A DNA stretch of 64,000 nt from Caulobacteraceae bacterium. GTDB taxonomy: Bacteria > Pseudomonadota > Alphaproteobacteria > Caulobacterales > Caulobacteraceae. The stretch spans positions 24,377 through 88,376 of the forward strand of contig JAFBAO010000107.1 of assembly GCA_019247715.1 (NCBI GenBank), in the 5' to 3' direction. Shown here in pieces: positions 33,467-48,582 of the stretch (its first letter is position 1; each line of letters begins with the position of its first letter). The notes under the pieces are model-generated. The model did no database searches. It was not told the origin of the DNA and saw only the letters and a list, made by a program, of their open reading frames with translations. The translations under genes were made by a program, and so were the position numbers.

Positions 33467-34480
33467 CTAGGCGAGCTTCCCCATGGCCAGGGCCACGTCG
33501 GCCATGCGGGTCGAGAAGCCCCATTCGTTGTCGTACCAGGAAAGCACCCGGACCAGCCGGCCGCCGACCACCTGGGTGAGGGGAAGAGCGGCCGTGGACG
33601 AGGCGTCCACGTGGTTCAGGTCGACCGAGACCAGCGGTTCCTTGGTGACCGCGAGGATCCCGTGAAGCGGGCCGGCGCCGGCGGCCCGCGCGAGCGCCTC
33701 GTTCACCTCATCCTTGGACGTCTCGCGCCCGGCGATGATCTTGAGGTCCACCACCGAGACGTTCGGGGTGGGCACCCGGATCGCCGCGCCGTCCAGCTTG
33801 CCGGCGAGCTCGGGAATGACGAGGCCGATCGCCTTCGCCGCCCCGGTGGAGGTGGGGATCATCGACGTCGCCGCCGCGCGGCCCCGGTAGAGGTCGCTGT
33901 GCAAGGTGTCGAGTGTCGGCTGGTCGCCGGTGTAGGCGTGGACCGTGGTCATGAACCCGCTTTCGACGCCGACGGTGTCCAGCAGCACCTTGGCGATCGG
34001 CGCCAGGCAGTTGGTGGTGCACGAGCCGTTTGAGACCACCCGATCGTCGTTGTTCAAGGTCTGATGGTTGACCCCGAAGACGATCGTCCGATCGGCCGCA
34101 TCGCAAGGCGCCGAGACCAGAACCCGGCGTGCGCCCGCGGCCAGGTGAGCGCTCGCCTTGTCCTTGGTGGTGAAAAGCCCGGTGCACTCCAGGGCGATGT
34201 CGACGCCAAGCTCCTTGTGCGGGAGCTGCGGGGGGTCGCGGATGGCGGTGACCTTGATCTTGCCGCCGTGGCCGATGTCGATGCTGTCGCCCGCCACCTC
34301 GACCTTGCCTGGATAGCGGCCATGCACGGAATCGTAGCGGAGCAGGTGGGCGTTGGTCTCGACTGGGCCGAGATCGTTGATGGACACGACCTCGATATCC
34401 GAGCGGCCGTGCTCGACGATGGAGCGCAGGACCAGCCGGCCGATGCGGCCAAAGCCGTTAATGGCGACGCGCAACGGCAT
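33467..34480 (-). CDS. gap: Glyceraldehyde-3-phosphate dehydrogenase (type I)
   Basis: AINGFGRIGR, SNGSCTTNCLAP, PTSTGAAKA, WYDNEWG. Confidence 0.97.
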   Translation of the reverse strand: MPLRVAINGFGRIGRLVLRSIVEHGRSDIEVVSINDLGPVETNAHLLRYDSVHGRYPGKVEVAGDSIDIGHGGKIKVTAIRDPPQLPHKELGVDIALECTGLFTTKDKASAHLAAGARRVLVSAPCDAADRTIVFGVNHQTLNNDDRVVSNGSCTTNCLAPIAKVLLDTVGVESGFMTTVHAYTGDQPTLDTLHSDLYRGRAAATSMIPTSTGAAKAIGLVIPELAGKLDGAAIRVPTPNVSVVDLKIIAGRETSKDEVNEALARAAGAGPLHGILAVTKEPLVSVDLNHVDASSTAALPLTQVVGGRLVRVLSWYDNEWGFSTRMADVALAMGKLA

Positions 34481-34603
34481 GGCTGCCAAGCTCCCGATCT
34501 TCCGAAGGTGGCGGGGGGTTTTGCGGCTCGCAGTGGCGAAGTCAAGCCCGCCGCGGGCGCTAACATCGCCCCCCAGCGCCCCGATGGGGGCCCGGCGGAG
34601 CGG

Positions 34604-35599
34604 CTAAAGGGCGCGGGTGGCGCGCAAGGACTTGGGCCTGGGTCCCCCAAGAGGAGCCTCGTCAGCCCCTGCGTCCGCCGCCTGGCCGAGCCAAGCCCGA
34701 TAGACCGCCACCGCCGCCGGGCGCCACCGGCGGACCGGTCGGGACCCGTCCAGGATCTCCAGGAAGGCGGGCAGCAGCGCCGGGTCGGACCGCAGGCGCG
34801 CCTGGGCGGTCAGCCGCTCCAGAGCCTGCTCGCTCTCGGCGTCGAGATAGCCAGCCGGCATGGCCGGCAGCCGCCCGCCGTTTCGGAAGAACCGCCCGAG
34901 GTCGCGGCCGTATTCGCGCAGCAGGCTGTCGGCTTCGTATTCCGGATGCCCCTGAAAGTAGAGCGACGCGCTTTCGCTCGGGCCCAGGAAGGCGTCCACG
35001 CCGGCGGTCGGCGAACGGCTCAGGATCTCATAGCCGGCGCTGACGAGATCCGCCTCGGCCAGGTCGTTCCAGCGCGAATGAGGAACCCAGAAGGCGTGGC
35101 TCAGGCCCTCGGCGAGGGGATGATCGCTGGCCGGCGCGCATGGGAACACCCCGCTCAGCTTTTCCGCCAGAGGCCGGCGGCGCACGCCTGCCTGATGCAG
35201 GACCGCCGCGTGGGCCGCCAGGCACGACCATACGGTGGGGACCCGCGCCGCCTCGGTCCAGTCGACCACCCGGCGAAGGTCGTCCCAATAGGGCTCGTCC
35301 TCGAGCGAGGCGGTGCGCGGCTCGGCCCCCGTGACGATGAGCCCGTCGAGGCCGGCGCCCGCCAGCGACCCGGCGTCGGCGTAGCGTCCTCGCATCTGCT
35401 CCCGGGCCCGCTCGCCCCTTTCAATCGCCGGCAAGGCGAAGAGGCGCAACTCCACGGAGAACTCGGTTCCCGCCTCCGCGAGCAGCCCCTCGAACTGGGC
35501 CTCGGCGGTCGCCAGCGCGCTGTCTCCGAGATTGTTGAGAAGACCGATGCGCAGCCGGCGCCGGCCGCCTCTCCTGGGCTCCTTGACGAGCGGGCTCAT
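34604..35599 (-). CDS. metA: Homoserine O-acyltransferase, MetA (HTS) family
   Basis: IGLLNN, DGLIVTGAEP, YWDDL, WSCLAAHA (catalytic Cys), PHSRWN, FQGHPEY; overlaps the metY stop. Confidence 0.85.
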   Translation of the reverse strand: MSPLVKEPRRGGRRRLRIGLLNNLGDSALATAEAQFEGLLAEAGTEFSVELRLFALPAIERGERAREQMRGRYADAGSLAGAGLDGLIVTGAEPRTASLEDEPYWDDLRRVVDWTEAARVPTVWSCLAAHAAVLHQAGVRRRPLAEKLSGVFPCAPASDHPLAEGLSHAFWVPHSRWNDLAEADLVSAGYEILSRSPTAGVDAFLGPSESASLYFQGHPEYEADSLLREYGRDLGRFFRNGGRLPAMPAGYLDAESEQALERLTAQARLRSDPALLPAFLEILDGSRPVRRWRPAAVAVYRAWLGQAADAGADEAPLGGPRPKSLRATRAL

Positions 35600-36885
35600 G
35601 GCCGCTTGCCGGCCAGCGCACCCGCCAACGCTTGGTCGAGATCGCCGATGATGTCGTCCACGTGCTCGATGCCGACGCAGAGCCGGATCATCTCGGGCGT
35701 CACCCCCGCCTTGGCGCGCTCGTCGTTGGTCATCTGCCTGTGGGTGGTGGAGGCCGGGTGGCAAGCCAGCGACTTCACGTCGCCGATGTTCACCAGCCGC
35801 TTGATGAGGCCGAGGCGGTCGTAGAAGACCTTGGCCGTCTCGAACCCGCCCGCCACGCCGAAGGTCAGCAGCGAGGGCGGGGTTCCGCGGAGATACTTCT
35901 GGGCGAGCTCGAAGTAGGGGCTCTCGGCGAAGCCCGCATAGCTCACCCACTCGATGCGCGGATCGGCCTTCAGGAATTCGGCGACCCGGCGGGCGTTCTC
36001 CACGTGCCGCTCCACCCGCAGCGCCACCGTCTCGATCCCCTGCAGCAGCAGGAAGGCGTTGAGCGGCGCCAGCACCGCCCCGGTGGTGCGCTGATAGACG
36101 CTGCGGATGCGCGCGGCGTAGGCGGCGGGGCCGAAGCGTTCGGTGTAGACGAGACCGTGATACGAGGCGTCCGGCTCGCTGAACATCGGGAACCGCGCCC
36201 GCTGGGCCGCCCAGTCGAAACGGCCGCCATCGACAACGACGCCGCCCATGGTGGTTCCGTGTCCGCCCATGAACTTGGTCAACGAATGAACCACGATGTC
36301 GGCGCCATGCTCGAAGGGGCGAAGCAGGATCGGGGTCGCCACCGTGTTGTCGACGATGAGGGGAACGCCGTGCCGATGGGCGGCCTCGGCGATGCCCGCG
36401 ATGTCGCAGATGTTGCCGGCCGGATTGCCGACGCTTTCGCAGAACACCGCCCGCGTATTTTCGTCGATGAGCCGCTCGATCGCTTCGGGGCTGTCGCTCT
36501 CGGCGAACCGCCCCTCGATCCCCTGCCTTGGAAGGACGTGCGAGAGCAGGGTGTGGCTCGTCCCATAGAGCTGCGGGGTTGAGACGATGTTGCCGCCGCG
36601 GTCCGCCAGGTTCACCAGGGCGTAGTGCAGCGCCGCCTGGCCCGAGGCGACCGCCACCGAAGCTGCGCCGCCCTCGAGCTCGGTCACCCGGGTCTCCAGG
36701 ATCGTGGTGGTGGGATTGGCGATCCGGCTGTAGCGGTAGCCCTCGACCTCGAGGTTGAACAGGGCCGCGCCGTGGTCGGCGCTCTCGAAGGCGTAGGCGG
36801 CCGTCTGATAGATCGGGACCGCGACCGCCCGGGTGGCCGGGTCGCAGTCGAAGCCGCTGTGGACGGCGATGGTCTCCCGGCGCAT
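35596..36885 (-). CDS. metY: O-acylhomoserine aminocarboxypropyltransferase (sulfhydrylase)
   Basis: AVPIYQT, YSRIANPT, VDNT, HSLTKFMGGHG (PLP Lys), NIGDVKSL..HPASTTH. Confidence 0.9.
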   Translation of the reverse strand: MRRETIAVHSGFDCDPATRAVAVPIYQTAAYAFESADHGAALFNLEVEGYRYSRIANPTTTILETRVTELEGGAASVAVASGQAALHYALVNLADRGGNIVSTPQLYGTSHTLLSHVLPRQGIEGRFAESDSPEAIERLIDENTRAVFCESVGNPAGNICDIAGIAEAAHRHGVPLIVDNTVATPILLRPFEHGADIVVHSLTKFMGGHGTTMGGVVVDGGRFDWAAQRARFPMFSEPDASYHGLVYTERFGPAAYAARIRSVYQRTTGAVLAPLNAFLLLQGIETVALRVERHVENARRVAEFLKADPRIEWVSYAGFAESPYFELAQKYLRGTPPSLLTFGVAGGFETAKVFYDRLGLIKRLVNIGDVKSLACHPASTTHRQMTNDERAKAGVTPEMIRLCVGIEHVDDIIGDLDQALAGALAGKRP

Positions 36886-36951
36886 GAAGGCCTCCGATGC
36901 CGGCGCACTGATCTCGAATTGGACCGGCGCCAGCGTCCCGCGCAACAAAAC

Positions 36952-36967
36952 TGCAGGACGCATGCCG
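36952..36967 (-). promoter_or_regulatory. Putative sigma54 -24/-12 promoter for metY-metA
   Basis: Minus strand CGGCAT-GCGTC-CTGCA; invariant GG and GC correctly spaced. Confidence 0.5.
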
Positions 36968-36977
36968 GGCCGGCGGC

Positions 36978-36993
36978 TGGCGCGCGTCTTGCT
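36978..36993 (+). promoter_or_regulatory. Sigma54 -24/-12 promoter for the long-chain acyl-CoA synthetase
   Basis: TGGCGC-GCGTC-TTGCT, 44 nt before ATG 37038. Confidence 0.7.
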
Positions 36994-37037
36994 CCATTCG
37001 GTGTTAAGCCCCTCATTAGGCCCCGTCGACGCAAACC

Positions 37038-38819
37038 ATGCCCCCTGAGACCGAGGCGATTGCAAAGCCCGCGCTGCGCTCCGCGAACAAGGACTGGCTG
37101 CGCGCGCTGGAAATGACCGGCCGCCTGGAAGCGCGGCCGAACCGCATCCTGCCGAGCGTAATCGACGAGCAGGCAGAGCGGCTGGGCGAGGCGCCGGCCC
37201 TGCTTTCGGAAAGCGAGACCCTTTCGTTCCCGGCCCTGGCCGGGCGCGTCCGACGCTACGGGCGGTGGGCCCTGGAGAGCGGACTGGGCAAGGGCGACGT
37301 CGTCGCCCTGCTGATGCCGAACCGTCCCGAATACCTGGCCGCCTGGCTCGGGCTCACGCGGGTGGGCGTCGTGACGGGCTTGCTCAACCCTGAGCTCCGA
37401 GGCGCCTCTCTGGCGCACTGCGTGGGTGTCGCGCGCGCCAAGCGGATCATCGTGGACGCGCGGCTGGCGGGCGGCCTGCTGGAGGCCATCGGCGTCGAAG
37501 GGCCGCCGATCGTCGTTCACGGCGAAGGCTGGAGCGGCCTGCCGCGGATCGATCTGGAGCTCGCGACGCTTCCGGCCGAGGCGGCGGGGCCGGAGGTCAC
37601 CCTCGCCGACCCGGCCCTGCTCATCTACACCTCCGGCACCACCGGTTTGCCCAAGGCGGCGCGGGTCAGCCACCACCGGGTCATGAGCTGGAGCTACTGG
37701 TTCGCGGGCCTCGCCGACATCCGGCCCACCGACCGGCTCTACGACTGCCTGCCGCTCTGCCACAGCGCTGGCGGCGTGGCGGCGGTGGGCGCGGCGCTGG
37801 TCGGCGGCGCCTCGACCGTCATCGCCCCGAAATTCTCGGCCAGCCGCTTCTGGGACGAGGTGACGGACTGGGAGTGCACCCTCTTCCAGTACATCGGCGA
37901 GCTCTGCCGCTATCTCCTGGCCGCGCCGCCTCACCCGAGGGAACGGGCGCATCGCCTGAGGCTCTGCTGCGGCAACGGCCTGGCCGGCGACGTCTGGACC
38001 GCGTTCCAACAGCGCTTCGCCGTCCCCCAGATCCTGGAGTTCTACGCCGCCACCGAGGGCACGTTCTCGCTCTACAACGTGGAGGGAAAGCCCGGGGCGA
38101 TCGGGCGGGTGCCGCCGCTCCTGCGGCATCGGTTCCCGGCGGCGATCGTCAAGTACGACGCCGACGCCCGCGCGCCGGCCCGCAACCCCGAGGGCTTCTG
38201 CATCCCCTGCGCCAGCGGCGAGGCGGGAGAGGCCATCGGCCGGATCGCCTCCCAGGGAACCGGCCGGTTCGAGGGCTACACCGACATTGCCGAGAGCCAG
38301 AAGAAGCTGCTGCGCGACGTCTTCGCCCCCGGCGACGCCTGGTTCCGGACCGGCGACCTGATGCGCCAGGACGACCAGGCTTTCTGGTATTTCGTCGACC
38401 GGATCGGCGACACTTTCCGCTGGAAGGGAGAGAACGTCTCCGCCGCCGAGGTCGCCGAAGCTCTGCGCGCCTTCCCGGGGATCCGGGACGCCAGCGTCTA
38501 TGGCGTCGTCGTTCCCGGCGCCGGCGGGCGGGCCGGCATGGCCGCGGTGGTCGCCGGCCCCGATTTCGATCTCGCCGTCCTGCCGGCGCACCTGGCGGCG
38601 CGCCTCCCGGACTACGCGAGACCGGTCTTCCTGAGGCTCGTCCCGACGCTGGCGGTGACCGAGACCTTCAAGCCGAAGAAGGCGGCGCTGGCCGAGGAGG
38701 GCTATGATCCGGGCCGCTCGGACGATCCCCTCTACCTCTACGACCGCGAGCGGGGAGCCTATGTGGGTCTGGATGCGGACCTTCTCGCGCAGGTCCGAGA
38801 GGGGCGACTGCGCCTCTGA
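37038..38819 (+). CDS. Long-chain acyl-CoA synthetase (FATP/SLC27-like)
   Basis: IYTSGTTGLPKAA, FQYIGELCRYL, WFRTGDL, DRIGDTFRWKGENVS. Confidence 0.9.
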   Translation: MPPETEAIAKPALRSANKDWLRALEMTGRLEARPNRILPSVIDEQAERLGEAPALLSESETLSFPALAGRVRRYGRWALESGLGKGDVVALLMPNRPEYLAAWLGLTRVGVVTGLLNPELRGASLAHCVGVARAKRIIVDARLAGGLLEAIGVEGPPIVVHGEGWSGLPRIDLELATLPAEAAGPEVTLADPALLIYTSGTTGLPKAARVSHHRVMSWSYWFAGLADIRPTDRLYDCLPLCHSAGGVAAVGAALVGGASTVIAPKFSASRFWDEVTDWECTLFQYIGELCRYLLAAPPHPRERAHRLRLCCGNGLAGDVWTAFQQRFAVPQILEFYAATEGTFSLYNVEGKPGAIGRVPPLLRHRFPAAIVKYDADARAPARNPEGFCIPCASGEAGEAIGRIASQGTGRFEGYTDIAESQKKLLRDVFAPGDAWFRTGDLMRQDDQAFWYFVDRIGDTFRWKGENVSAAEVAEALRAFPGIRDASVYGVVVPGAGGRAGMAAVVAGPDFDLAVLPAHLAARLPDYARPVFLRLVPTLAVTETFKPKKAALAEEGYDPGRSDDPLYLYDRERGAYVGLDADLLAQVREGRLRL

Positions 38820-39749
38820 TCAGCCGATCAGGCCGCGCAACTGCGCCCCGATCGCGGTCGCCGCCGCCTCGCCGTAGGGAATCGCCTGCGCCAGCGCATA
38901 GAAGTAGTGAATCATCCCTGCGTGGCAGGTCTCTTCCACCTTCACACCGGCGCCCTTCAGTCGCCCGGCGTAGGCCGTGCCCTCGTCCCGGAACGGATCG
39001 AACTCGGCCGTATGCAACAGCGTCGGCGGGAGTCCCTCGAAGCTGGCCGCCTGCAGCGGAGAAAGGCGCGGATCGCGACGATCGAGAGGCGGCGGGCAAT
39101 AGGCGTCGACATCCCGGTCCATGGTCGCGCGACTGAGGAAGAAGCCCTCGGAGAGGGCGCGCCGCGATTCCGACTCTTCGGCGAGGTCGAGGATCGGGCA
39201 GATCAGCAGTTGGGCGGCGATCATCGGGCCGCCTTGGTCCCGGAGCGCGGCGCTGGCGGCGGCGGCGAGGCCCCCGCCGGCCGAATCCCCCCCGATCGCC
39301 AGCCGATCCGGATCGATCCCCAGCTCCGCCGCCTTGTCCCCCACCCACCGCACCGCGGCCAGAGCGTCGTCGAACGCGGCCGGGAAAGGGTGTTCCGGCG
39401 CGAGCCGGTAGTCGACCGCGACCACGGTCAGGCGCGCGGCCTCGGCGAGCCGCCCGCAAAGGCCCCCATGCGTCTCGGCGCCCCCGGCGACCCAGCCCCC
39501 GCCGTGGAGGAAGACCAGCGCCGGCTGCGGTCCATCCGAAGCCTCTGCAGGCGCATAGAGGTCGAGCCCGACAGCGCCCCCGGGGCCGGGCGCCTCCAGG
39601 CGGCGGACGGGCGCGCGGCCAGGGCGATCGGCCATCTGCGCCAGGGCTCGCAGGCCCTCGCGCCGCGCGGCCGCCGTCGCCTCCGCGCCCGCCGAACCGC
39701 CGGCCGCCAGCATGTCCAGAAGGCGCTGGGCGCGGCGATCGAGCGGCAT
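38820..39749 (-). CDS. Alpha/beta hydrolase, HSL family esterase
   Basis: HGGG oxyanion motif, GDSAGG nucleophile, EFDPFRDEG, GMIH. Confidence 0.92.
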   Translation of the reverse strand: MPLDRRAQRLLDMLAAGGSAGAEATAAARREGLRALAQMADRPGRAPVRRLEAPGPGGAVGLDLYAPAEASDGPQPALVFLHGGGWVAGGAETHGGLCGRLAEAARLTVVAVDYRLAPEHPFPAAFDDALAAVRWVGDKAAELGIDPDRLAIGGDSAGGGLAAAASAALRDQGGPMIAAQLLICPILDLAEESESRRALSEGFFLSRATMDRDVDAYCPPPLDRRDPRLSPLQAASFEGLPPTLLHTAEFDPFRDEGTAYAGRLKGAGVKVEETCHAGMIHYFYALAQAIPYGEAAATAIGAQLRGLIG

Positions 39750-39758
39750 GAGGGAAAG

Positions 39759-40025
39759 CTAGGCCGCCAGGCCGATGGCGTCCACCAGGCGGCAGATGGC
39801 GTCTATGCTGCGGAAGTTCGCCGGCGTCATCTGCTTCTGGGGAATCTCGATGCCGAAGGCGTCTTCCACCGCGAGCATCAGATTGACCATGTCCAGCGAG
39901 GTGAGGCCGAGCTCCGTCAGGTCGTGAGCCGGATCCAGCGGACCGGCGATCCCCCGCCGGGCCATGACCCCTTCCACGATGCCGGTGATCGTCGCCTGCG
40001 CCGACGCTGTAGACCCCTGCCCCAT
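39759..40025 (-). CDS. Carrier protein 1 (phosphopantetheine-binding; likely cognate of the aa:CP ligase)
   Basis: LGLTSLDMVNLMLAVEDAFGIEIPQKQMTPANF; Ppant Ser in GLTS. Confidence 0.88.
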   Translation of the reverse strand: MGQGSTASAQATITGIVEGVMARRGIAGPLDPAHDLTELGLTSLDMVNLMLAVEDAFGIEIPQKQMTPANFRSIDAICRLVDAIGLAA

Positions 40026-40112
40026 CTCAACACCCCAACGGCGCCGCGGCGCCACACTTTCGTCCCATTCCGGACCGGTTCCAACGACCGTCCTATTCGG
40101 GATTGCGCGGGT

Positions 40113-40128
40113 TGCAAGCGGCAAGCCA
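40113..40128 (-). promoter_or_regulatory. Putative sigma54 promoter for carrier protein 1 and the esterase
   Basis: Minus strand TGGCTT-GCCGC-TTGCA. Confidence 0.6.
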
Positions 40129-40201
40129 CCAGGCGGCGAAGTCCGCGCCATGATTGAGCGTCGAATAGGCTCGGCGGCCCAGTGACGAACCGCTTGCCGG
40201 G

Positions 40202-40217
40202 TGGCATGGGGATTGCT
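40202..40217 (+). promoter_or_regulatory. Sigma54 promoter for the ACAD-ligase operon
   Basis: TGGCAT-GGGGA-TTGCT, near-perfect consensus, 64 nt before ATG 40282. Confidence 0.75.
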
Positions 40218-40281
40218 GATCTGGCGTCCGAGCAAGCGACGTCGCCACCTTTCGGCCGTCGGATGAATCAGGGATCAGCGT

Positions 40282-41496
40282 ATGGGCGTTCAAGACTTCC
40301 ACCGGGCCAGCGAGCCAAGCACGGTCGCGAAGGGTCCGATCGTCGCCGAGCCGCTGATGGCGCGCGCCGCGCGCGCCGCCGCCGTCGCGGCCGCACACGC
40401 CGAGGCGGTCGATCGCGACGCGCGCTTTCCTGCTGAAGCGATCGCCGCCGCCAAGGCCGAGGGACTGTTGGGGGTCATGGTCCCGGCTTCGCTGGGCGGC
40501 GAGGGGCTCGGCCTTCGCCAGGTGATGGAGGTCTGCTACACGCTCGGCCGAGCCTGCGCGTCGACGGCGATGATCTACGCCATGCACCAGGTGAAGGTGG
40601 CGTGCGTGGTCCGCCATGGCGTGGGCAGCGCCTGGCACGAGGACTTCCTGCGGCGCCTGGTGCGCGAGCAGCTCTTGCTCGCCTCCTCCACCACCGAGGG
40701 ACAGGGCGGCGGCAACGTCCGCTCCAGCGAAGCGCCGATCGAGCGGTCCGGCGACCGGATCTCGCTGGTCCGGGCGGCGAGCGTGATCTCCTACGGCGAA
40801 GCGGCCGATGCGGTGGTCACCACCGCCCGCCGGGCCCCCGATGCGTCGGCCTCCGACCAGGTGCTGACGGTGTTCCTGCGCGCCGATTACAGCCTGGAGC
40901 GCAATCTGGAGTGGGACACGCTCGGCATGCGCGGCACCTGCAGCGCCGGGTTCACCCTGCGGGCCGAGGGCGAGGCCGCGCAAATCCTGCCGGTCGCCTA
41001 CGAGACCATCCACGCCCACAGCATGGTTCCGGCCGCCCACATCCTCTGGTCCAGCACCTGGGCCGGCGTCGCCGCTTCCGCGGTGGAGCGGGCGCGGCGC
41101 TACCTGCGCAAGGCCGCCGCGGCCGGGGCCCTGCCGCCGAGCGCCCCCTATTTCACCCGCGCCAACGGCGAGCTGAGGGCGCTGCGGGCGCTGATCGCCG
41201 CCGCGGTCGATCGCTACGAGGCGGTCATGGACCAGCCTGACGCCCTTTCGGCGATGGATTTCCAATCGCAGATCAGCCTGCTGAAGGTGGACACCTCGGA
41301 ACTGGCGGTCTCGGCGGTGATGAGCGCCATGCGTTGCTGCGGGCTCTCCGGCTACCGCAACGACTCTGACGCCTCCATCGGACGGCGACTGCGCGACATC
41401 CTCTCGGCGCCGATCATGATCAACAACGACCGCATCCTGGCCAACGTCGGCGCTTCGGCGCTGCTGACCGAGGTGGCGGCCTCCATCAAGGACTGA
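40282..41496 (+). CDS. Acyl-CoA dehydrogenase-fold flavoprotein (atypical)
   Basis: AVDRDARFP, CASTAMIYAMH, SSTTEGQGGGN, WDTLGMRGTCS, RRLRDILSAPIMINND. Confidence 0.85.
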   Translation: MGVQDFHRASEPSTVAKGPIVAEPLMARAARAAAVAAAHAEAVDRDARFPAEAIAAAKAEGLLGVMVPASLGGEGLGLRQVMEVCYTLGRACASTAMIYAMHQVKVACVVRHGVGSAWHEDFLRRLVREQLLLASSTTEGQGGGNVRSSEAPIERSGDRISLVRAASVISYGEAADAVVTTARRAPDASASDQVLTVFLRADYSLERNLEWDTLGMRGTCSAGFTLRAEGEAAQILPVAYETIHAHSMVPAAHILWSSTWAGVAASAVERARRYLRKAAAAGALPPSAPYFTRANGELRALRALIAAAVDRYEAVMDQPDALSAMDFQSQISLLKVDTSELAVSAVMSAMRCCGLSGYRNDSDASIGRRLRDILSAPIMINNDRILANVGASALLTEVAASIKD

Positions 41497-41499
41497 ACC

Positions 41500-42411
41500 G
41501 TGAACGACATGCCCAGATTCCAAGGCAAGGCGGACACCCTGAAGGAGGGGCTTTTCCTGCCCAGCGGCGTGGACGGGATCTACGCCCGCACCGGCCTTTA
41601 CGAGGGGGTGGTGGAGTCGCTCGCCGCCCTGATCTCTTCGGAGCGTCCCGCCGGCGCCGAGGTGCTGCGGTTCCCGCCCGTGATGAGCCGCGCCCAGATC
41701 GAGCGGCACGGCTACCTGAAGAGCTTTCCGAACCTCCTGGGCTGCGTCAGCTGCCTGACCGGCGACGAGCGGCATATCCGCGGCGTCGTCCAGCGGTTCG
41801 AGGAGGGCGCCGATTGGACGAGCGAGCTCGGGGCGGCCGATCTGGTGCTGGCCCCGGCGGCCTGCTATCCGGTTTACCCTCTGGCCGCCGCCCGGGGAGC
41901 GGTCCCCGCCGAAGGCCTCACCTTCGACGTGGCCGCCGATTGCTTCCGGCGTGAGCCTTCCACCGACATCGACCGCTTCCAGTCCTTCCGGATGCGCGAA
42001 TATGTCCGCATCGGCTCGCCCGAGCAGATCCACGCGTTCCGCGAGGCGTGGATCGGGCGGGCCAAGAGCCTCGCCGACCGTCTCGGCCTCGGCTACCGCA
42101 TCGACCTCGCCAGCGACCCCTTCTTCGGACGCGGCGGGGCGATCGTGGCCGCCAGCCAGATCGAGCAGGCGCTCAAGTTCGAGTTGCTCATCCCGGTGCG
42201 CTCCGAGGCCGAGCCGACCGCCTGCATGAGCTTCAACTACCACCAGGACCACTTCGGGCTCACCTGGGACCTGCGAACCGGCGACGGCGGCCCCGCCCAC
42301 ACCGGCTGCGTGGCCTTCGGCATGGACCGGCTGGCCGTCGCCATGTTCGCCACCCACGGTCTCGATACGGACGCCTGGCCGGCGGGCGTGCGAAAGGCGT
42401 TGAAGCTCTGA
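41500..42411 (+). CDS. Amino acid:[carrier protein] ligase (truncated atypical SerRS homolog)
   Basis: GYLKSFP, PAACYPVYP (Zn Cys), motif 2 CFRREPS, FRMREYV (Zn Glu), SDPFFGR, SFNYHQDHFG, HTGCVAFGMDR (Zn Cys, motif 3); no tRNA-binding domain. Confidence 0.92.
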   Translation: MNDMPRFQGKADTLKEGLFLPSGVDGIYARTGLYEGVVESLAALISSERPAGAEVLRFPPVMSRAQIERHGYLKSFPNLLGCVSCLTGDERHIRGVVQRFEEGADWTSELGAADLVLAPAACYPVYPLAAARGAVPAEGLTFDVAADCFRREPSTDIDRFQSFRMREYVRIGSPEQIHAFREAWIGRAKSLADRLGLGYRIDLASDPFFGRGGAIVAASQIEQALKFELLIPVRSEAEPTACMSFNYHQDHFGLTWDLRTGDGGPAHTGCVAFGMDRLAVAMFATHGLDTDAWPAGVRKALKL

Positions 42412-42425
42412 CCGACTGCTCCCCA

Positions 42426-42442
42426 CCTCCCCAAACGGGAGG
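42426..42442 (+). terminator. Short GC hairpin after the ligase gene
   Basis: CCTCCC-CAAAC-GGGAGG; no U-tract. Confidence 0.25.
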
Positions 42443-42486
42443 GAACGCTCTAGGCTGCGGGTGGAAACGCGCCGAGAGCGGGGGAC

Positions 42487-43296
42487 ATGGGCTACGAGGC
42501 CGCCCTGGCGGGCTACGAGAAGTTCGACTTCCGCGACGGGCGCTGGACCAGACCCGTCTGGCGACGCGGATCGGGGCCGGCGGTGATCGTGATCCATGAG
42601 ATGCCGGGCCTGCATCCCGGCGTGATCGCCTTCGCGGACCGGGTGGCGGCGGCCGGCATGACCGTGTTCTGCCCTGTCCTCTTCGGGGTCGCCGGTCGAC
42701 CGATGACCCATCCTGGCGGGCTCCTCACCATGCTCGGGGGCCTTTGCATCCGGCGCGAGTTCGCCGTCTGGTCCGCGGGACGCTCGAGCCCGATCGTGGA
42801 TTGGCTGCGCGCCCTTTCGCGCCAGGCCCGCGCCGAGTGCGGCGGCAAAGGGGTGGGCGCGGTGGGCATGTGCTTCACCGGCGGCTTCGCCCTGGCGATG
42901 ATGACCGAGCCGGCCGTGACCGCCCCGGTGCTCTCGCAACCCTCTCTGCCGATGGCGCCCGGGAGCCGGCGCCGCGCGGCCGGCGTCGACGCCTCGGCCG
43001 CCGAGATCGCCTGCGCCCGACGGCGCTTCGCCGAGGAGGACCTCTCGATGATCGGGCTGCGCTTCCTGGGCGACCCCATGGTCCCGGACGCCCGGTTCGA
43101 CACCCTCAAGCGCGAGTTCGGCGACCGGTTCGAGGCCATCGAGATCGAGCCGCAGGACGCGGCCCCCGGGCCCCTCAAGAACCCCCATTCGGTGCTGACC
43201 GCCAACCTCGCCGAAACTGGCCCCACCAAGGCCGCCGAGACGCGGGTGATCGCCTTCTTCCGCGAGCGGACCGGCGCAGGGGCCGTGAACCCATAG
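42487..43296 (+). CDS. Dienelactone hydrolase family protein
   Basis: VIVIHEMPG, GAVGMCFTGG (Cys nucleophile), HSVL. Confidence 0.85.
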   Translation: MGYEAALAGYEKFDFRDGRWTRPVWRRGSGPAVIVIHEMPGLHPGVIAFADRVAAAGMTVFCPVLFGVAGRPMTHPGGLLTMLGGLCIRREFAVWSAGRSSPIVDWLRALSRQARAECGGKGVGAVGMCFTGGFALAMMTEPAVTAPVLSQPSLPMAPGSRRRAAGVDASAAEIACARRRFAEEDLSMIGLRFLGDPMVPDARFDTLKREFGDRFEAIEIEPQDAAPGPLKNPHSVLTANLAETGPTKAAETRVIAFFRERTGAGAVNP

Positions 43297-43298
43297 GC

Positions 43299-44030
43299 TC
43301 AGGCCGTGTTGCCGGCGTCGATGGTCAGCACGGTGCCGGTGATGTTGCGCCCGCCCTCGCCCATCAGGAACTCGACGGCGGCGGCGATGTCCTCCACCTC
43401 GGCGAGCCGGCGAAGGGCGCTGCGCCGGACGATCTTTTCGAGCCCGCCCTCGCCCATGCCCTCGGTCATGTCGGTCTCGATGAAGCCCGGAGCGACGGCG
43501 TTGACGGTGACGCCGAGACGGCCGACCTCCCTGGAGAGGGATTTGGTGAACCCGATCATCGCCGCCTTGGTCGCCCCATAGGCGGCCAGGGAGTTGTAGC
43601 CGTTCGAGCCGACGATCGAGGACATGTTGATGATCCGTCCGCCGTCGGCCTCGGTCATCATGGTGCGGATGACATACTTGGTCAGCAGGATGGGCGCGGT
43701 GACGTTGACCCGGATCAGCGTGTCGATCTGGGAGTTGTGCATGTTGGTAAGCAGCGCCCCGTCGCCGACGCCGGCGTTGTTGACGAGTCCGTAGATGCCG
43801 CCGAACTCGGCCTTCAGCTTGCGCACCAGCTCGGGAATGCCCTCGACATCGGAAAGGTCGTAGGGGACGAAGCGGATCGATCCCGGCGCCTCGGCGATGG
43901 CCGCGCTGAGCTCCGCGTTCGGATTGCGGGCGAGGGCGATCATGTAATAGCCGGCCCCGGCGAGCCTGCGCACGATCGCCAGGCCGATGCCCCGGCTTCC
44001 CCCGGTCACGAGCACATTACGCAACGCCAC
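43299..44030 (-). CDS. FabG-like SDR oxidoreductase
   Basis: TGGSRGIG, NNAG, YGATK, VNAVAPGFIETDM. Confidence 0.92.
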   Translation of the reverse strand: MALRNVLVTGGSRGIGLAIVRRLAGAGYYMIALARNPNAELSAAIAEAPGSIRFVPYDLSDVEGIPELVRKLKAEFGGIYGLVNNAGVGDGALLTNMHNSQIDTLIRVNVTAPILLTKYVIRTMMTEADGGRIINMSSIVGSNGYNSLAAYGATKAAMIGFTKSLSREVGRLGVTVNAVAPGFIETDMTEGMGEGGLEKIVRRSALRRLAEVEDIAAAVEFLMGEGGRNITGTVLTIDAGNTA

Positions 44031-45414
44031 GCTCCAGCTTGCCCCCGGCGGTCATCGCCAGCGTCGGCACGATACGCACAGACGCCGGCGTTTTGAAGGG
44101 CGGCAGGGCTTCGCGGCAAGCGCGAAGCACCTCTTCCTTCACCTTCGCCTCGTCGGTCCCCTGGCGCAACGCCTGCTCAGTGAGCACCAGCTCGGCGATC
44201 ACGATCGCCCCGGTGATCGGGTTGCGCCGTCCGCGCACCAGCGACATCCGCACCGCCGGATGGCGGTTGATCACCGCCTCTACCTCTTCGGGATGCACCT
44301 TGAGGCCCCCGACGTTGATGACCCCGTTGCGGCGGCCGACGAAGTGGTACCGCGCGCCCCTGAGCTCCACCATGTCGCCGCTGTCGACGAAGCCGTCCGG
44401 CTCGGCCAGCGGCGCAGCGCCCTCGCCAAGATAGCGGCTGGCGATGCGGGTCGACTTCAGTCTGAGCGAGCCGTCCTCGACCTTGAGGCGGACGGGGCCA
44501 TCGGCCTCCAGCAGGCTGGCCGGGAAGCCCTCGAGACCGTCGGTGACCTCGAACCCGACCCCGGCCTCCGTGGAGGCGTAGGCGTGGCCCATGGGAACGC
44601 CGGGAAAGAAGTCGCGCAGACTGTCCAGAATTGCCTGATCGGCGATCTCGCCCGACAGCCGCACGTACCGCGGATGGAGCGCCTTGGCGGCCGGATTCAT
44701 CAAGGCCCAGCGCCAGTGGGAAGGCGTGCCGGTGAGATGGGTGACCTGGTGGCGCGCCAGCCGGTCGAGGAAGCTCCCCATCGGCTCGTCCGGCCCGGTG
44801 AGCACCAGCGATCCCTCGGACAGCAGGGCGCGCAGCAGGATCTGCAGGCCGCCGTAGCGGCGGACATCGTAGAAGGTGCCCCAGGTCGGCGCCGGCGCGT
44901 CAGGGGCAGGCCGCTGGATGGCGCCGCTCAGCCCCGCGAGGGTGTGGACCACCATCTTCGGCCGGCCGGAGGTGCCAGAGGTGAACATCACCCACTCGGT
45001 CACCTGCTCTTCGTGCGTCTCGCCCGCCAGGGGGGTCTTCGGCCTGACGATCGGCGCGAAGGCCAGGCCCGAGAGCGCCGCCGGCGGGGCCTTTTCCGAC
45101 ACCACCGCATCCAGCGCCGCGACCTCGGCCACGTAGGGGAGATGCTCCTCCTCGAGATCGGGAGGGCAGATCACCAGGCGCGAGGCGACCCCATCCAGCT
45201 CCACCAGGGCGAGGGCCGCGAACAGCGGATCTTTCACCCGGACAAGCACCGAACGGCCCGCCAGGCCCGCGAGCGTCTGGCCGAGACCGGTGCCGTAGGC
45301 GACGTCGCCCAGCCGCACCCGGCGCCGTGCCCCCCAGAGCCAGCGGTCGCCCAGGCGTTGGGAGGTCGTCAGGGTTCGGCGGAGCGGCGCGGGATCAGGG
45401 CGTGGCGTTCTCAT
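44017..45414 (-). CDS. ANL-superfamily adenylate-forming ligase (acyl-AMP/acyl-carrier ligase)
   Basis: FTSGTSGRPK, YASTEAG, DSGD, GRRNGVINVGGLKVHPEEVE, C-terminal GGKL. Confidence 0.88.
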   Translation of the reverse strand: MRTPRPDPAPLRRTLTTSQRLGDRWLWGARRRVRLGDVAYGTGLGQTLAGLAGRSVLVRVKDPLFAALALVELDGVASRLVICPPDLEEEHLPYVAEVAALDAVVSEKAPPAALSGLAFAPIVRPKTPLAGETHEEQVTEWVMFTSGTSGRPKMVVHTLAGLSGAIQRPAPDAPAPTWGTFYDVRRYGGLQILLRALLSEGSLVLTGPDEPMGSFLDRLARHQVTHLTGTPSHWRWALMNPAAKALHPRYVRLSGEIADQAILDSLRDFFPGVPMGHAYASTEAGVGFEVTDGLEGFPASLLEADGPVRLKVEDGSLRLKSTRIASRYLGEGAAPLAEPDGFVDSGDMVELRGARYHFVGRRNGVINVGGLKVHPEEVEAVINRHPAVRMSLVRGRRNPITGAIVIAELVLTEQALRQGTDEAKVKEEVLRACREALPPFKTPASVRIVPTLAMTAGGKLERGVA

Positions 45415-45634
45415 AGAAGCGAATAAAGTCGCCCACGGTCACCGGGAAATAAACGTCTTCCGACAGGCTGAAGGGGTCAAACCCCAGTTCATCCTCTAGG
45501 ATCGCCACGATGATCGCGAAGCAAAGGGAATCCAGTCCCGACTCCAGCAGGGTGAGCCCGTCCGAAAGCGTCGCCAGGGTACGGTCCTGGGCCACGGCCA
45601 CCCGGCGGAACGCCGCCAGGATCGTCGCGCGCAC
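45395..45634 (-). CDS. Carrier protein 2 (acyl carrier protein)
   Basis: LLESGLDSLCFAIIVAILEDELGFDPF; GTG start at 45634 preferred, upstream ATG 45733 also possible. Confidence 0.82.
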   Translation of the reverse strand: MRATILAAFRRVAVAQDRTLATLSDGLTLLESGLDSLCFAIIVAILEDELGFDPFSLSEDVYFPVTVGDFIRFYENATP

Positions 45635-45745
45635 GGAGCCCGGCTCGCCCTCGAAAGGCGTTTCCGGAGCGCACGCTTCTTGCTCACCGGCGTCCAAGGC
45701 GCCTTGCCCGCGCTCCCTGGTCGCATCGTTCATGGTCCGCTCCTA

Positions 45746-46603
45746 ATGCCGCCGTCGCCGCAAGTCCGTTGCCGCCAGATCCGGGAAGCCGACCTGACGC
45801 AGGTCGCCGACCTCCTGACCCGAGGCTTTCCAAAGCGCGCTCGCAAATATTGGACCAGCGGTCTGGAGCGCCTCGCGGCCTGCCCGATCATCGAGGGTTG
45901 TCCGAGATTCGGCTATCTTCTGGAGGCCGACGGCGAGGTGGTCGGCGCCCTGCTGCTGATCTTCCACCAGACAGGCGCGGGAGCGGACGCCCGAATCCGC
46001 TGCAACGTGTCGAGCTGGTATGTGGAGCCGGCGTTCCGTAGCCATGCGCCGCTCCTCGTTTCCCTGGCCCTGAAGCTGAAGCACGTCACCTACGTGAACA
46101 TCTCGGCCGCCGTCCACACCCTCCCGATGCTGAAGGCGCAGGGGTACAGCCTTTACAGCCAGGGCCAGTTTGTCGCCATCCCCGCCCTGGCGGCCGCAGG
46201 TCGGGTGCGCGCCCGGTTCTTAGGCGCCGGCTCGGACCTCGTTCCGCCCGAGCGGGAGTTGATCGAAACGCATGTGGCCGCCGGCTGTGTGGCGGTGATT
46301 TGCGAGACCGACGGGGACGCGCTGCCCTTCCTCTTCGCCCGTCGCCGCATCGCCTACGCGCCCTTCGGGGTCCTCCAGCTCGTCTACTGCCGGGACACCG
46401 CCGATTTCTCGCGCTGCGCCGGCGCCATCGGTCGGCTCCTTTTGGCACGCGGGGTCCTGGCGGTGCTTTGCGACGCCGACGCCCCGCTCGCGGGCCTCCC
46501 CGGCTTCCTTTTCAGGAACAAGGGCGCGAGGCATTTCAAAGGTCCGGACCGGCCGCGCCTCAACGACCTTTCCTACACCGAGCTCGTCCTCTTCGGCGCC
46601 TGA
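45746..46603 (+). CDS. GNAT/Fem-like acyl- or aminoacyl-transferase
   Basis: IREADL..VADLL..GF, GYLLEADGEVVG, NVSSWYVEPAFR; length consistent with a tandem GNAT fold. Confidence 0.65.
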   Translation: MPPSPQVRCRQIREADLTQVADLLTRGFPKRARKYWTSGLERLAACPIIEGCPRFGYLLEADGEVVGALLLIFHQTGAGADARIRCNVSSWYVEPAFRSHAPLLVSLALKLKHVTYVNISAAVHTLPMLKAQGYSLYSQGQFVAIPALAAAGRVRARFLGAGSDLVPPERELIETHVAAGCVAVICETDGDALPFLFARRRIAYAPFGVLQLVYCRDTADFSRCAGAIGRLLLARGVLAVLCDADAPLAGLPGFLFRNKGARHFKGPDRPRLNDLSYTELVLFGA

Positions 46604-46670
46604 GACGCGGGGCCCCGCGGCGGCTCGGCCCGCCCTTGCTGCAACGCGGCGGCGCGACCATTTTTTGGCC

Positions 46671-47618
46671 ATGCCGTATGATGTTTCCGAGTGGCTGGAC
46701 GAGCCGCTCGATCCCTATTCCGCCCGGGTCGCTCACGCTTTCGAGACGGTCGGCCCGAGCGTCGTCCACATCTCCGCTCAGCAGGCGAACGGCCGGACCG
46801 GAACCGGCTCGGGCGTGATCTTCGCCCCTGACGGCTACCTAGTCACCAATAGCCACGTGGTGGCCAACGCCGCCCGCCTCTCGGCCAGCATGACCGACGG
46901 GCGCCGCTTCGAGGCGCGGCTGGTGGGCGACGATCCGGCCACCGACCTCGCGGTCCTGCGGCTGGACGCCGCCAGCCTGCCCCATGCGCAGTTCGGCGCT
47001 TCCGCCCGGTTGCGGGTGGGCCAGCTCGTGGTCGCCATCGGCAACCCGCTCGGGTTCCAGGCGACCGTGACCGCCGGCATCGTCAGCGCCTTGGGGCGCA
47101 CCTTGCGCTCCCCGAGCGGCCGCCTGATCGAGAGCGTCATCCAGACCGACGCGCCCCTCAATCCCGGCAACTCCGGCGGCGCCCTGGTGGACGGCGCCGG
47201 CCGGGTGATCGGGGTCAACACCGCCATGGTGGGCCAGGCCCAAGGCCTCTGCTTCGCCATCGGCGCCGACACCGTCACCGACGTGGCCGTCCGGCTCATG
47301 CGGGACGGCCGGGTGCGCCGGGCCAGGCTGGGCCTGGCCGCCCAGACCACCCCCCTGGACCCGAGGCTGGCCCGGCGGCTGGGACGCAGCGGCGGCACGG
47401 CGGTGCTGGTCTCGGAAGCGACCCCGGCGGGCCCGGCCGCCCTGGCGGGGGTCGAGGCGGGAGACCTGGTCCTGGAGTTCGCCGGCGCGGCGGTCTTCAC
47501 GGTCGACGACCTCCACCGGCTGCTCACCGCCGAGATCGCCGGCGTCGAGGCGGAACTGAAGCTGATCCGCCGCGGCAGGATCGAGACCCTGACGCTCCGC
47601 CCGGATCTCGACGCCTAA
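46671..47618 (+). CDS. HtrA/trypsin-like serine protease with PDZ domain
   Basis: TNSHVV, TDLAVL, QTDAPLNPGNSGG triad; C-terminal PDZ; no signal peptide. Confidence 0.92.
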   Translation: MPYDVSEWLDEPLDPYSARVAHAFETVGPSVVHISAQQANGRTGTGSGVIFAPDGYLVTNSHVVANAARLSASMTDGRRFEARLVGDDPATDLAVLRLDAASLPHAQFGASARLRVGQLVVAIGNPLGFQATVTAGIVSALGRTLRSPSGRLIESVIQTDAPLNPGNSGGALVDGAGRVIGVNTAMVGQAQGLCFAIGADTVTDVAVRLMRDGRVRRARLGLAAQTTPLDPRLARRLGRSGGTAVLVSEATPAGPAALAGVEAGDLVLEFAGAAVFTVDDLHRLLTAEIAGVEAELKLIRRGRIETLTLRPDLDA

Positions 47619-47706: not shown

Positions 47707-48582
47707 ATGATCACCGGGGAAGTCATCGCCGACGGCCTAGGCGTGGCCGAGGGTCCGTGCTGGTGCGCCGACGGGAGCGTCGTCGTGACCAGCGTCGATC
47801 AGGGCGTGCTCTACCGGATCAGTCCGCAGGGCGGCGAGGCGGCGGTTCTGGCGCGCACCAGAGGCGGTCCGAACGGAGCGGCCCCCGCCGCGGACGGCGG
47901 CTTCATCGTCACCCAGAACGGCGGGTTCGACTTCAACCAGGTGGGCCTGAAGACGCCGCCCCCCGACTTGGTCGAGCCCGGGCTGCAGCGCGTCGCGCCC
48001 GACGGGTCGGTGAGCTATCTGCTGCAGGGCGGCTTCCAGTCGCCCAACGACCTGGTGGTCGCGCCGGACGGAACCCTCTATTTTACCGACCCCCCGCGCT
48101 TCCCGTTCGAGCCGGAGGCGCGGGGCGGGCGCGTGTGGTCGCTTGCGGCGGGCGCCCGAGAGGCGCAAGTGGTCGCGGCCGGCTTCGTCTTCTGCAACGG
48201 GATCGGCGTGGCGCCTGACGGCGGCATTCTGCCCACCGAGCACGGCGGGATCGTCCGCCTTTCGGGCGCAGACGAGCGACCTTGGGTCATCCGGCACGCC
48301 GCCGACGTGGACGGGTTCTGCCTGGACGCCGAGGGGCGGATATACGCCTCCATTCCCTCCGAGCGCGGCGTGCGCGTCTTCGAGGACGGGCGCAGCGTCG
48401 ACTTCCTGCCGCTTCCCGGCGCCGATCGCCTCGGCCCGGGCGAGATCATGTGGTGCACCAACTGCTGTTTCGGCGGCGAGGACATGCGCACGCTGTTCGC
48501 CACGACAGGGTTTCCGGGCCGTCTTGTGGCCTTCACGGGAATGCCCACCGCGGGCGCGCCGGTCCGTCCCTGGCCGGCCTGA
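47707..48582 (+). CDS. SMP-30/gluconolactonase family protein
   Basis: AEGPCW, GPNGAA, SPNDLVVAPDGTLYFTDP, NGIG, DGFCLDAEG, TNCCFGG. Confidence 0.9.
   Translation: MITGEVIADGLGVAEGPCWCADGSVVVTSVDQGVLYRISPQGGEAAVLARTRGGPNGAAPAADGGFIVTQNGGFDFNQVGLKTPPPDLVEPGLQRVAPDGSVSYLLQGGFQSPNDLVVAPDGTLYFTDPPRFPFEPEARGGRVWSLAAGAREAQVVAAGFVFCNGIGVAPDGGILPTEHGGIVRLSGADERPWVIRHAADVDGFCLDAEGRIYASIPSERGVRVFEDGRSVDFLPLPGADRLGPGEIMWCTNCCFGGEDMRTLFATTGFPGRLVAFTGMPTAGAPVRPWPA

Follow-up and report, generated by a model that had tools for sequence, protein, structure and literature searches.

A Modular Two-Carrier Gene Cluster Around a Predicted Amino Acid:Carrier Protein Ligase Recurs in Alphaproteobacteria

Introduction

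Which enzymes work together with ligases of the amino acid:carrier protein type (aa:CP ligases), and what could they make? This question is raised by a 64,000-nt stretch of DNA, here called the window, from a Caulobacteraceae bacterium (contig JAFBAO010000107.1, positions 24,377 to 88,376), in which a gene for such a ligase lies in a block of 12 genes between gap and htrA. Mocibob and co-workers reportedly found in 2010 and 2013 that the ligase Bll0957 of Bradyrhizobium diazoefficiens loads glycine on a carrier in vitro, and in the 2010 work aa:CP ligases are said to charge carrier proteins with glycine or alanine. We take Bll0957 to be aa:CP ligase 1 (PDB 3MEY and 4H2W), Bll0958 to be its acyl-CoA dehydrogenase (ACAD) neighbor, and Bsr0959 to be the carrier protein. 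The biological role of aa:CP ligases was still called unknown in a 2022 review (PMC9437257), and within the literature that we searched there is no paper giving these ligases a product or role.

The window belongs to a metagenome-assembled genome (MAG) of 4.06 Mb from a root metagenome, which is 99.7% complete and has MAGs of Caulobacteraceae or Caulobacterales as its closest relatives. A first-pass annotation of the block had proposed a complete stand-alone assembly line with two carrier proteins, a tRNA-independent ligase, and sigma54 control, which would work without a nonribosomal peptide synthetase (NRPS) or polyketide synthase (PKS) core. It also named an N-acyl amino acid or a decoration of glycans or lipids as possible products, both of which are guesses.

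Results and Discussion

The Window Encodes a Predicted Ortholog of Bll0957

The ligase gene (41500-42411, + strand) occurs once in the 4.06-Mb genome and encodes a protein of 303 aa, which consists of a class-II catalytic core without a tRNA-binding domain. It is ~67% identical to the Bll0957 structures 3MEY and 4H2W across residues 5-301 (297 residues; E = 5e-132) and yields 465 bits with the NF005479 model, the cut-off of which is 357. Methanogen-type seryl-tRNA synthetase is matched just in its C-terminal catalytic part (residues 310-505). The ligase gene is flanked by an adjoining gene for an ACAD-fold flavoenzyme (40282-41496, + strand; Acyl-CoA_dh_N and Acyl-CoA_dh_1 domains) and, divergent to the latter, by a dedicated carrier gene, called carrier 1 (39759-40025, - strand). 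Carrier 1 has 88 aa with its start placed at MGQGST, contains a GLTSLD phosphopantetheine site, and matches PP-binding (1.9e-8) and PRK07081 (4e-16). The same carrier-ACAD-ligase arrangement is formed by Bsr0959, Bll0958, and Bll0957. Thus, as judged from homology, the protein is predicted to be a true tRNA-independent aa:CP ligase and a Bll0957 ortholog, in agreement with the first-pass annotation.

The Gene Set Recurs Around Ligase Relatives

Besides the triad of carrier 1, ACAD, and ligase, the block contains metA, metY, and genes for a FATP-type acyl-CoA synthetase, an esterase of the hormone-sensitive lipase (HSL) family, a protein of the dienelactone hydrolase (DLH) family, a short-chain dehydrogenase/reductase (SDR), an adenylate-forming (ANL) ligase, a second carrier (carrier 2), and a GNAT-type transferase. 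We searched 80 loci, each consisting of a ligase relative of 65-81% identity and its 10-kb flanks, with all proteins of the window. Eleven of the 12 block genes recur within 10 kb of ligase relatives, in shuffled order, and the taxa concerned are Caulobacterales-like MAGs, Xanthobacteraceae, Methylobacterium, Rhodopseudomonas, Methylocapsa, Roseiarcus, and Rhizomicrobium. The full 11 genes lie within 10 kb at five loci from two taxonomic orders, and 16 loci have at least nine of the 11. The triad is present at 77-80 of the 80 loci (carrier 1 at 77), the GNAT gene at 66, the bll0957 locus among them. Among the 42 non-Bradyrhizobium loci, for which many gene absences fall at contig ends, we found the SDR gene at 35, the ANL and carrier 2 genes at 33 each, the GNAT gene at 29, the esterase gene at 23, the FATP gene and metY at 20 each, and metA at 16. 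The metY copies at other loci are 70-83% identical, and the FATP gene adjoins metY-metA wherever both are seen, mostly in divergent orientation and co-directionally at three loci of the Methylobacterium type (L026, L027, L068). The flanking genes gap and htrA, as well as the SMP-30/gluconolactonase-like (SGL) and sulfotransferase genes that follow htrA in the window, were found at 0 of the 80 loci.

A set that is stable despite its varied order and orientation presents the pattern expected of functionally linked genes. Since metA/metY, the carrier 2-ANL-SDR-GNAT genes, and the ligase module stand together within 10 kb in several families, the objection that these modules rarely co-occur, which the first-pass annotation had raised against itself, fails. 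What can be retained from that annotation is a conserved, NRPS-independent two-carrier cluster around an aa:CP ligase. In the literature searched we found no description of the extended gene set.

Clustering of all open reading frames (ORFs) of the fetched loci yielded three further recurrent families, each in at least five taxon groups: an acetolactate-synthase-like thiamine pyrophosphate (TPP) enzyme (NF006052, 871 bits), a class-IV aminotransferase, and a small cupin. They occur at 12-17 of the 42 non-Bradyrhizobium loci, the aminotransferase at 17, and the nearest relatives have the TPP gene after the GNAT gene and before that of the aminotransferase. The window has a class-IV aminotransferase gene of the branched-chain type (49843-50706, - strand; Aminotran_4 3.8e-40; NF009896 446 bits, above cut-off), the product of which is 63.5% identical to the cluster-adjacent copies at other loci. 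As this gene of the conserved set lies beyond htrA (46665-47618), the boundary that had been drawn at htrA does not hold. The TPP enzyme and the cupin are missing from the window, and a TPP homolog with 60% identity is located outside the window on another contig of the genome (C34). There, in a second, related locus (C34:41500-52000), the TPP gene is accompanied by four ACAD-like ORFs and an ORF for a 624-aa double alpha/beta hydrolase, divergent to a carrier-2-like ORF (ETGLDSLCFA) and a carrier-1-like ORF; the frame of the latter seems broken after the serine motif and is possibly frameshifted. One locus from Xanthobacteraceae has a gene for an ABCD/SbmA-BacA-type ABC transporter with fused membrane and ATPase parts between the SDR and FATP genes (L014:14376-16568), which is the sole transporter seen inside a cluster.

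Two Modules Share a Tandem GNAT

In the following, module A refers to carrier 1, ACAD, and ligase and module B to carrier 2, ANL, and SDR. Of the whole set, the Bradyrhizobium loci contain only carrier 1, ACAD, ligase, and GNAT, and mtnP-mtnA adjoin the carrier gene. These loci represent the bll0957 locus, and because their ligases show 96-99% identity to the PDB sequence, the GNAT gene can be placed as an immediate neighbor of bll0957, namely bll0956. Compared with Bradyrhizobium, the window and many other taxa add the second carrier module, FATP, esterase, metA-metY, and aminotransferase. The complete genome G198, in turn, has module B in a row of metY, metA, a pyridoxal phosphate-dependent decarboxylase, FATP, SDR, ANL, carrier 2, and GNAT; its decarboxylase weakly resembles diaminobutyrate (DABA) decarboxylases. 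The GNAT gene is found with module A alone in Bradyrhizobium, with module B alone in G198, and elsewhere with both. Thus, the cluster is built of two modules, which are often but not always joined and have the tandem GNAT in common. For this reason, and because the sole phosphopantetheinyl transferase gene of the genome lies outside the cluster, the term "complete stand-alone line" used at first was too strong.

A sister clade of ligases, ~50% identical to that of the window, shows how the triad can be combined differently. Its cassette has the order carrier, ACAD, ligase, DUF1839 protein, GH2-like protein, tandem alpha/beta hydrolase and shares the core triad with the window, including an ACAD with the M-I-N-N-D-R and P-x-x-H signatures described below. 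It differs from the window in its partner transferase, which is of the DUF1839 type with no tandem GNAT, and it is without the carrier 2-ANL-SDR module, the met genes, and the window's other genes. Across the class, the ligase family is above cut-off in 8 of the 401 genomes of an evenly drawn sample. A class-wide search was also made with the GNAT profile, in which six candidates per genome were scored; as negatives of that search are unreliable, loci were examined directly.

The 12th gene of the block, encoding the DLH-family protein (42487-43296, + strand; DLH 1.8e-8), was found at 0 of the 80 loci. In relatives that are otherwise syntenic, the position after the ligase gene is variable and taken by a cytochrome P450 (L003:6149-7486), a MerR-SAICAR synthetase fusion (L007:10951-12354), or an unrelated alpha/beta hydrolase (L008:4754-5653). 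A role of the DLH-family protein as a recurrent ligase partner was rejected, as neither the hydrolase that fills this slot in L008 nor the tandem hydrolases of the DUF1839-type cassette resemble it. The DLH-family protein is a window-specific, lineage-specific insert outside the conserved set, and its earlier assignment as the releasing hydrolase was given up.

Predicted Functions of Carrier 2, the GNAT, and the ACAD-Fold Protein

The carrier 2 gene (45395-45733, - strand; GLDSL site) matches PP-binding with an E-value of only 0.014 when used as a single sequence. A profile of 25 orthologs, in which D68-S69-L70 is invariant, finds acyl and peptidyl carrier proteins only among the PDB sequences, with MacpD as best match (2e-8), and aligns to the carrier 1 profile with an E-value of 3.7e-5 (hhalign). 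By its profile, carrier 2 is predicted to be a genuine carrier protein, so that the early claim of two carriers stands. The ANL gene (44017-45414, - strand; AMP-binding and AMP-binding_C) has its nearest solved relatives among CoA ligases for small or medium acids, namely 3ETC, ACSM2A, MenE, and oxalyl-CoA synthetase. An assignment to the ligase-ACP-decarboxylase set of exosortase-A/PEP-CTERM systems (TIGR03098 and relatives) was rejected because the ANL proteins of the window and of G198 score 57-118 bits, far below the cut-off of 592. For the SDR (43299-44030, - strand; adh_short 3e-54) the nearest family are the 3-oxoacyl-ACP reductases (FabG), the model of which gives 207 bits, below its cut-off.

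For the GNAT gene (45743-46603, + strand; start uncertain, with an ORF from TTG 45680) there is no Pfam or NCBIfam match with E < 0.01, the best single-sequence E-value being 0.12. As its profile gave nothing meaningful against PDB sequences, a comparison of folds was needed. An AlphaFold (AF2) model was built from a 26-sequence alignment (mean pLDDT 91.6, pTM 0.87). In Foldseek, its best matches are the two-domain GNATs VipF, Eis, MAB_4324, and the clavulanate tandem GNAT (2WPW), with a probability of 1.00, E-values of ~1e-9, and TM scores of 0.5-0.6. At the level of the predicted model, the tandem-GNAT fold is confirmed, and the initial GNAT call with it. The canonical R/Q-x-x-G-x-G/A loop for CoA is absent from the protein; the motif region reads R-x-x-A and is glycine-free.

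The ACAD-fold protein keeps the fold and the motifs of the FAD region and, in an alignment that included SCAD and IVD, resembles true acyl-CoA dehydrogenases more closely than it does DszC-type oxygenases or SfnB. Among 83 orthologs from both ligase clades, the canonical catalytic glutamate is absent at both known positions: the MCAD-type position is I380, within M-I-N-N-D-R, and the IVD-type position is A252, followed by H253, in P-x-x-H. H253, D383, and R384 are at least 95% conserved. Because both catalytic glutamates are absent, canonical alpha,beta-dehydrogenation is unlikely. This would fit a glycyl substrate, since a glycyl unit has no beta carbon.

Genes of Methionine Metabolism Adjoin the Cluster

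A link to methionine is seen three times, in metA-metY, in mtnP-mtnA of Bradyrhizobium, and in the aminotransferase. In the window, the metA gene for a homoserine O-acyltransferase (34604-35599, - strand; Pfam HTS 2.7e-57; NF003776 349 bits, just below the cut-off of 358) overlaps by 4 nt with metY (35596-36885, - strand), which belongs to the O-acetylhomoserine sulfhydrylase family (TIGR01326 594 bits, above cut-off). The genome has a metY paralog with 50% identity on contig C54. A tblastn search of the genome identified no MetX and no second MetA; as the single-copy metA is the only homoserine acyltransferase gene there, it is possibly also the housekeeping copy. The sole homoserine O-acyltransferase gene of the MAG thus sits behind a sigma54-type promoter (see below) in an accessory cluster. 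In a search with Rfam, neither the cluster nor seven related loci matched a riboswitch or any other RNA family, and there is no SAM riboswitch before metY. In a phaR mutant of B. diazoefficiens, bll0957 and bll0958 are up together with metZ (PMC10888616), which we regard as a weak hint of a methionine link.

Gene Organization and Sigma54-Type Promoters

Raw ORF lists are noisy at the G+C content of the window (~70%), and genes were called with a filter for codon-position G+C (GC3 and frame); families were assigned by Pfam and NCBIfam scans of the window proteins. This analysis yielded the 12 genes in three divergent pairs (metY/FATP, carrier 1/ACAD, carrier 2/GNAT) between gap (33467-34489) and htrA that had been annotated initially. 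The family calls were upheld for all 12, for two of them (carrier 2 and GNAT) by profile or fold alone. The FATP gene (37038-38819, + strand) encodes a FATP/FadD6-type long-chain acyl-CoA synthetase (NF006134 725 bits, exceeding the cut-off of 625), and the HSL-family esterase gene (38820-39749, - strand; Abhydrolase_3 1.7e-73; LipP1 305 bits, below cut-off) lies downstream of carrier 1 in the same direction. The ANL ORF overlaps both carrier 2 and SDR, and from the end of the ACAD gene to the ligase start there are 4 nt. Given overlaps or gaps of up to 4 nt, metY-metA, ACAD-ligase, and carrier 2-ANL-SDR probably each form a transcription unit.

A weighted scan for -24/-12 elements detected 154 sites in the genome with a score of at least 18 out of 20, corresponding to 0.0053 per oriented region of 280 nt. 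Two divergent intergenic regions of the cluster contain four oriented sites with exactly spaced GG at -24 and GC at -12, of which three, located within 3.2 kb, score at least 18. In the metY-FATP spacer these are CGGCATGCGTCCTGCA (36952-36967, - strand), which points toward metY-metA and scores slightly below 18, and TGGCGCGCGTCTTGCT (36978-36993, + strand), which points toward FATP and with 19 out of 20 is one of 19 sites of the genome that reach at least 19. Between carrier 1 and ACAD, TGGCTTGCCGCTTGCA (40113-40128, - strand) is directed toward carrier 1 and the esterase and TGGCATGGGGATTGCT (40202-40217, + strand) toward ACAD-ligase-DLH, each with a score of at least 18. In the alignment of metY-FATP spacers the -24/-12 elements form invariant islands in diverged DNA, including CGGCATGCGTCCTGCA and, for TGGCGCGCGTCTTGCT, TGGCG and CTTGC, which are invariant across four loci. 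TGGCTTGCCGCTTGCA has counterparts in L002-L007 and L022, 63-100 nt upstream of the carrier 1 gene, and TGGCATGGGGATTGCT has them just in L006 and L007. In the six or seven loci closest to the window, such sites stand before carrier 1, FATP, and metY. The boxes are conserved in L002-L007 and at a few other loci, but not outside the Caulobacterales-like clade. A further element upstream of carrier 2, TGGTCCAATAYTTGCG, was rejected as a promoter: it lies within the GNAT ORF and encodes the conserved residues K-Y-W-T, so that it does not present independent promoter evidence. By these predictions, four transcription units of this lineage would have sigma54-type promoters, which are statistically unusual. 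Thus, of the sigma54 control proposed at first, the unusual boxes and their conservation in the nearest relatives stand; conservation beyond the clade was not found, and the box before carrier 2 is discounted. The presumed metY leader has a further conserved block, GATCTCGAATTGGA (window 36910-36923), which stands after the sigma54-type box and before the ribosome-binding site and is common to L002, L005, and L006, where the surrounding spacer has diverged.

The genome contains rpoN and four enhancer-binding proteins, none of which is encoded near the cluster; nor was a binding site for one found. The GAFTGA motif is kept by the FlbD-like (C43) and TacA-like (C87) proteins only. NtrC was rejected as the activator, as the NtrC-like and NtrX-like proteins (C16:56703-57176, C16:60455-60943) are without this motif. 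Given this distribution of GAFTGA, any sigma54 promoter of this genome would depend on developmental-type activators.

Beyond htrA, the window has the SGL gene and the gene with a Sulfotransfer_1 domain (47707-49778), of which the latter has two paralogs elsewhere in the genome. Together with htrA, both sit where relatives have the TPP enzyme. Further downstream (54655-56142) follows a gene for a flavin-containing monooxygenase with 43% identity to one that is located ~1.6 kb past mtnA at the Bradyrhizobium bll0957 locus; this resemblance may be a coincidence.

A Possible Pathway and Its Alternatives

We tentatively favor the interpretation that the genes, among which no NRPS or PKS core is present, form a modular accessory cluster for a small carrier-protein-templated product, the pathway of which would be linked to methionine, with the GNAT coupling two carrier-bound units. 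In module A, the ligase would adenylate glycine and load it on holo-carrier 1, as deduced from its orthology to Bll0957. The ACAD-fold flavoenzyme might then alter the carrier-bound unit by a chemistry that would be non-canonical, because the catalytic glutamate is lacking, and that could consist in oxidation of the C-alpha-N bond or in N-oxygenation. In module B, the ANL enzyme, as the presumed loader, would charge carrier 2 with a carboxylic acid of small or medium size, in which the FabG-like SDR would then reduce a keto group on the carrier. This acid would most likely be a 2-oxo acid or a 2-hydroxy-3-oxo acid. The aminotransferase could make the 2-oxo acid from an amino acid of the methionine or branched-chain type, and the acetolactate-synthase-like TPP enzyme of the relatives may convert 2-oxo acids to a 2-hydroxy-3-oxo acid, which on carrier 2 would be a plausible substrate for a FabG-like reductase. 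The tandem GNAT may couple the carrier-bound units or pass units to a common acceptor, the HSL-type esterase could release the product, and a long acyl chain may come from, or be attached by, the FATP-type synthetase. The enzymes encoded by metA-metY, or by mtnP-mtnA in Bradyrhizobium, would supply or recycle a building block derived from methionine or S-adenosylmethionine (SAM).

Parts of this scheme have counterparts in known pathways. Cereulide and valinomycin synthetases reduce keto acids on a carrier, and ZmaD-J and FkbH-K are pathways for aminomalonyl- and hydroxymalonyl-ACP, respectively. By analogy, the window would resemble these systems in that a small carrier-bound unit is served by a loader that stands alone, by a reductase or dehydrogenase of the SDR type, and by an enzyme with the ACAD fold. 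It differs from them in that no NRPS or PKS uses the unit and that the loaders belong to different families.

A more specific version, which we consider improbable, is that the tandem GNAT is a new carrier-protein-dependent condensing enzyme with an amine of the SAM/methionine pathway as acceptor, the product being an N-(aminoacyl or hydroxyacyl) homoserine-lactone-like or methionine-derived signal or lipoamino acid. Methylthioadenosine would be set free in the reaction, as it is by LuxI enzymes. This would explain why metA-metY occur in some lineages and the methylthioadenosine salvage genes mtnP-mtnA in Bradyrhizobium. If true, it would be the first biological role for ligases derived from aminoacyl-tRNA synthetases.

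Several points weigh against a common product of the cluster. The loci were picked via the ligase, and Bradyrhizobium, with 38 of the 80, is over-represented; none of these 38 loci has module B. Conversely, no ligase is present anywhere in the complete genome G198, despite its module B and metY-metA. Within the sequence fetched, L013, L015, and L066 show carrier 1, ACAD, and ligase only, L066 being a short contig, and metA may simply be a housekeeping gene. All steps after glycine loading are inferred, and the substrates of the ANL, ACAD, and GNAT proteins are guesses from the families that they resemble. The window sequence is contained in DNA runs only, from root and rock metagenomes.

The locus might instead consist of two or three independent neighboring systems with no common product, i.e., a carrier-ACAD-ligase cassette with its GNAT, a carrier 2-ANL-SDR acylation module, and genes of methionine or amino acid metabolism. 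That each module is found without the others is in line with this explanation, as are the status of metA as apparently the only homoserine acyltransferase gene of the genome and the interruption of the window cluster by the unrelated DLH, htrA, SGL, and sulfotransferase genes, with the TPP homolog on another contig. Nevertheless, we regard it as rather unlikely, since the families stay within 10 kb despite varied order in at least six taxon groups, which never share the flanks, since the GNAT bridges both modules, and since the closest relatives have one type of sigma54 box before metY, FATP, carrier 1, and ACAD.

A decoration of surface glycans or lipids appears less probable still. AlmEFG of Vibrio cholerae and DltABCD of Gram-positive bacteria load glycine or D-alanine on a small carrier without tRNA and transfer it to an envelope polymer, using an ANL enzyme for the loading and a membrane protein (AlmG, DltB) for the transfer. 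In an analogous manner, the GNAT could move a carrier-bound glycyl or acyl unit to an amino sugar or lipid. Module B of G198 adjoins Wzy_C, GT4, epimerase, and beta-helix genes, and in G167 the gene for a distant GNAT homolog has an overlap with one for a polysaccharide deacetylase, with GT2 and beta-helix genes nearby. The DUF1839, GH2-like, and tandem hydrolase proteins of the sister ligase clade would also suit such a role, as would the developmental FlbD-like and TacA-like regulators, which are the only GAFTGA-bearing sigma54 activators of the genome. In contrast to AlmEFG and DltABCD, the presumed glycine loader of the window is derived from a class-II aminoacyl-tRNA synthetase, and the predicted transferase is a soluble tandem GNAT. 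No component for transfer to the envelope is conserved with the cluster, neither a glycosyltransferase nor an MBOAT/DltB-like or AlmG-like membrane transferase or an exporter. The polysaccharide genes near the G198 and G167 copies are without homologs in all 80 loci, and a glycan context for the cluster was dropped for this reason. The homolog in G167 (L091:8785-10813) is 29% identical, with sulfatase and sulfate-permease genes also nearby, and these surroundings hint at a possible re-acylation of amino sugars by the wider GNAT family.

That the cluster serves to salvage or break down organosulfur compounds or sulfur amino acids, e.g., by turning methylthio compounds back into methionine via MetY, is in our view very unlikely. 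Such a role would account for metY, metA, mtnP, mtnA, aminotransferase, and cupin, which are all enzymes of methionine synthesis or salvage, and for the rise of bll0957 and bll0958 with metZ in the Bradyrhizobium phaR mutant (PMC10888616). The ACAD-fold protein weakly matches the sulfur-acquisition flavoenzymes SfnB and DszC, and acyl-CoA synthetases, SDR, and esterase are typical of catabolism. However, a glycine-loading ligase and two dedicated carriers have no known catabolic role, the ACAD-fold protein resembles true ACADs more than DszC or SfnB, no conserved transporter accompanies the cluster, and metY is not preceded by a SAM riboswitch.

Significance

With these data, the Bll0957-type ligase, which has been an orphan since 2010, gains a concrete and testable list of partners. 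Besides a tandem GNAT, it frequently includes a reductase together with a second loaded carrier, an esterase, and a long-chain acyl-CoA synthetase, as well as an aminotransferase with a TPP enzyme and genes for methionine supply or salvage. The question of the ligase's role thereby narrows to tests in bacteria that are cultured and tractable, such as Bradyrhizobium diazoefficiens USDA 110, Rhodopseudomonas, and Methylorubrum. Overall, the gene set suggests that small clusters with carrier-templated products form a class of their own, which genome mining centered on NRPS and PKS genes probably overlooks.

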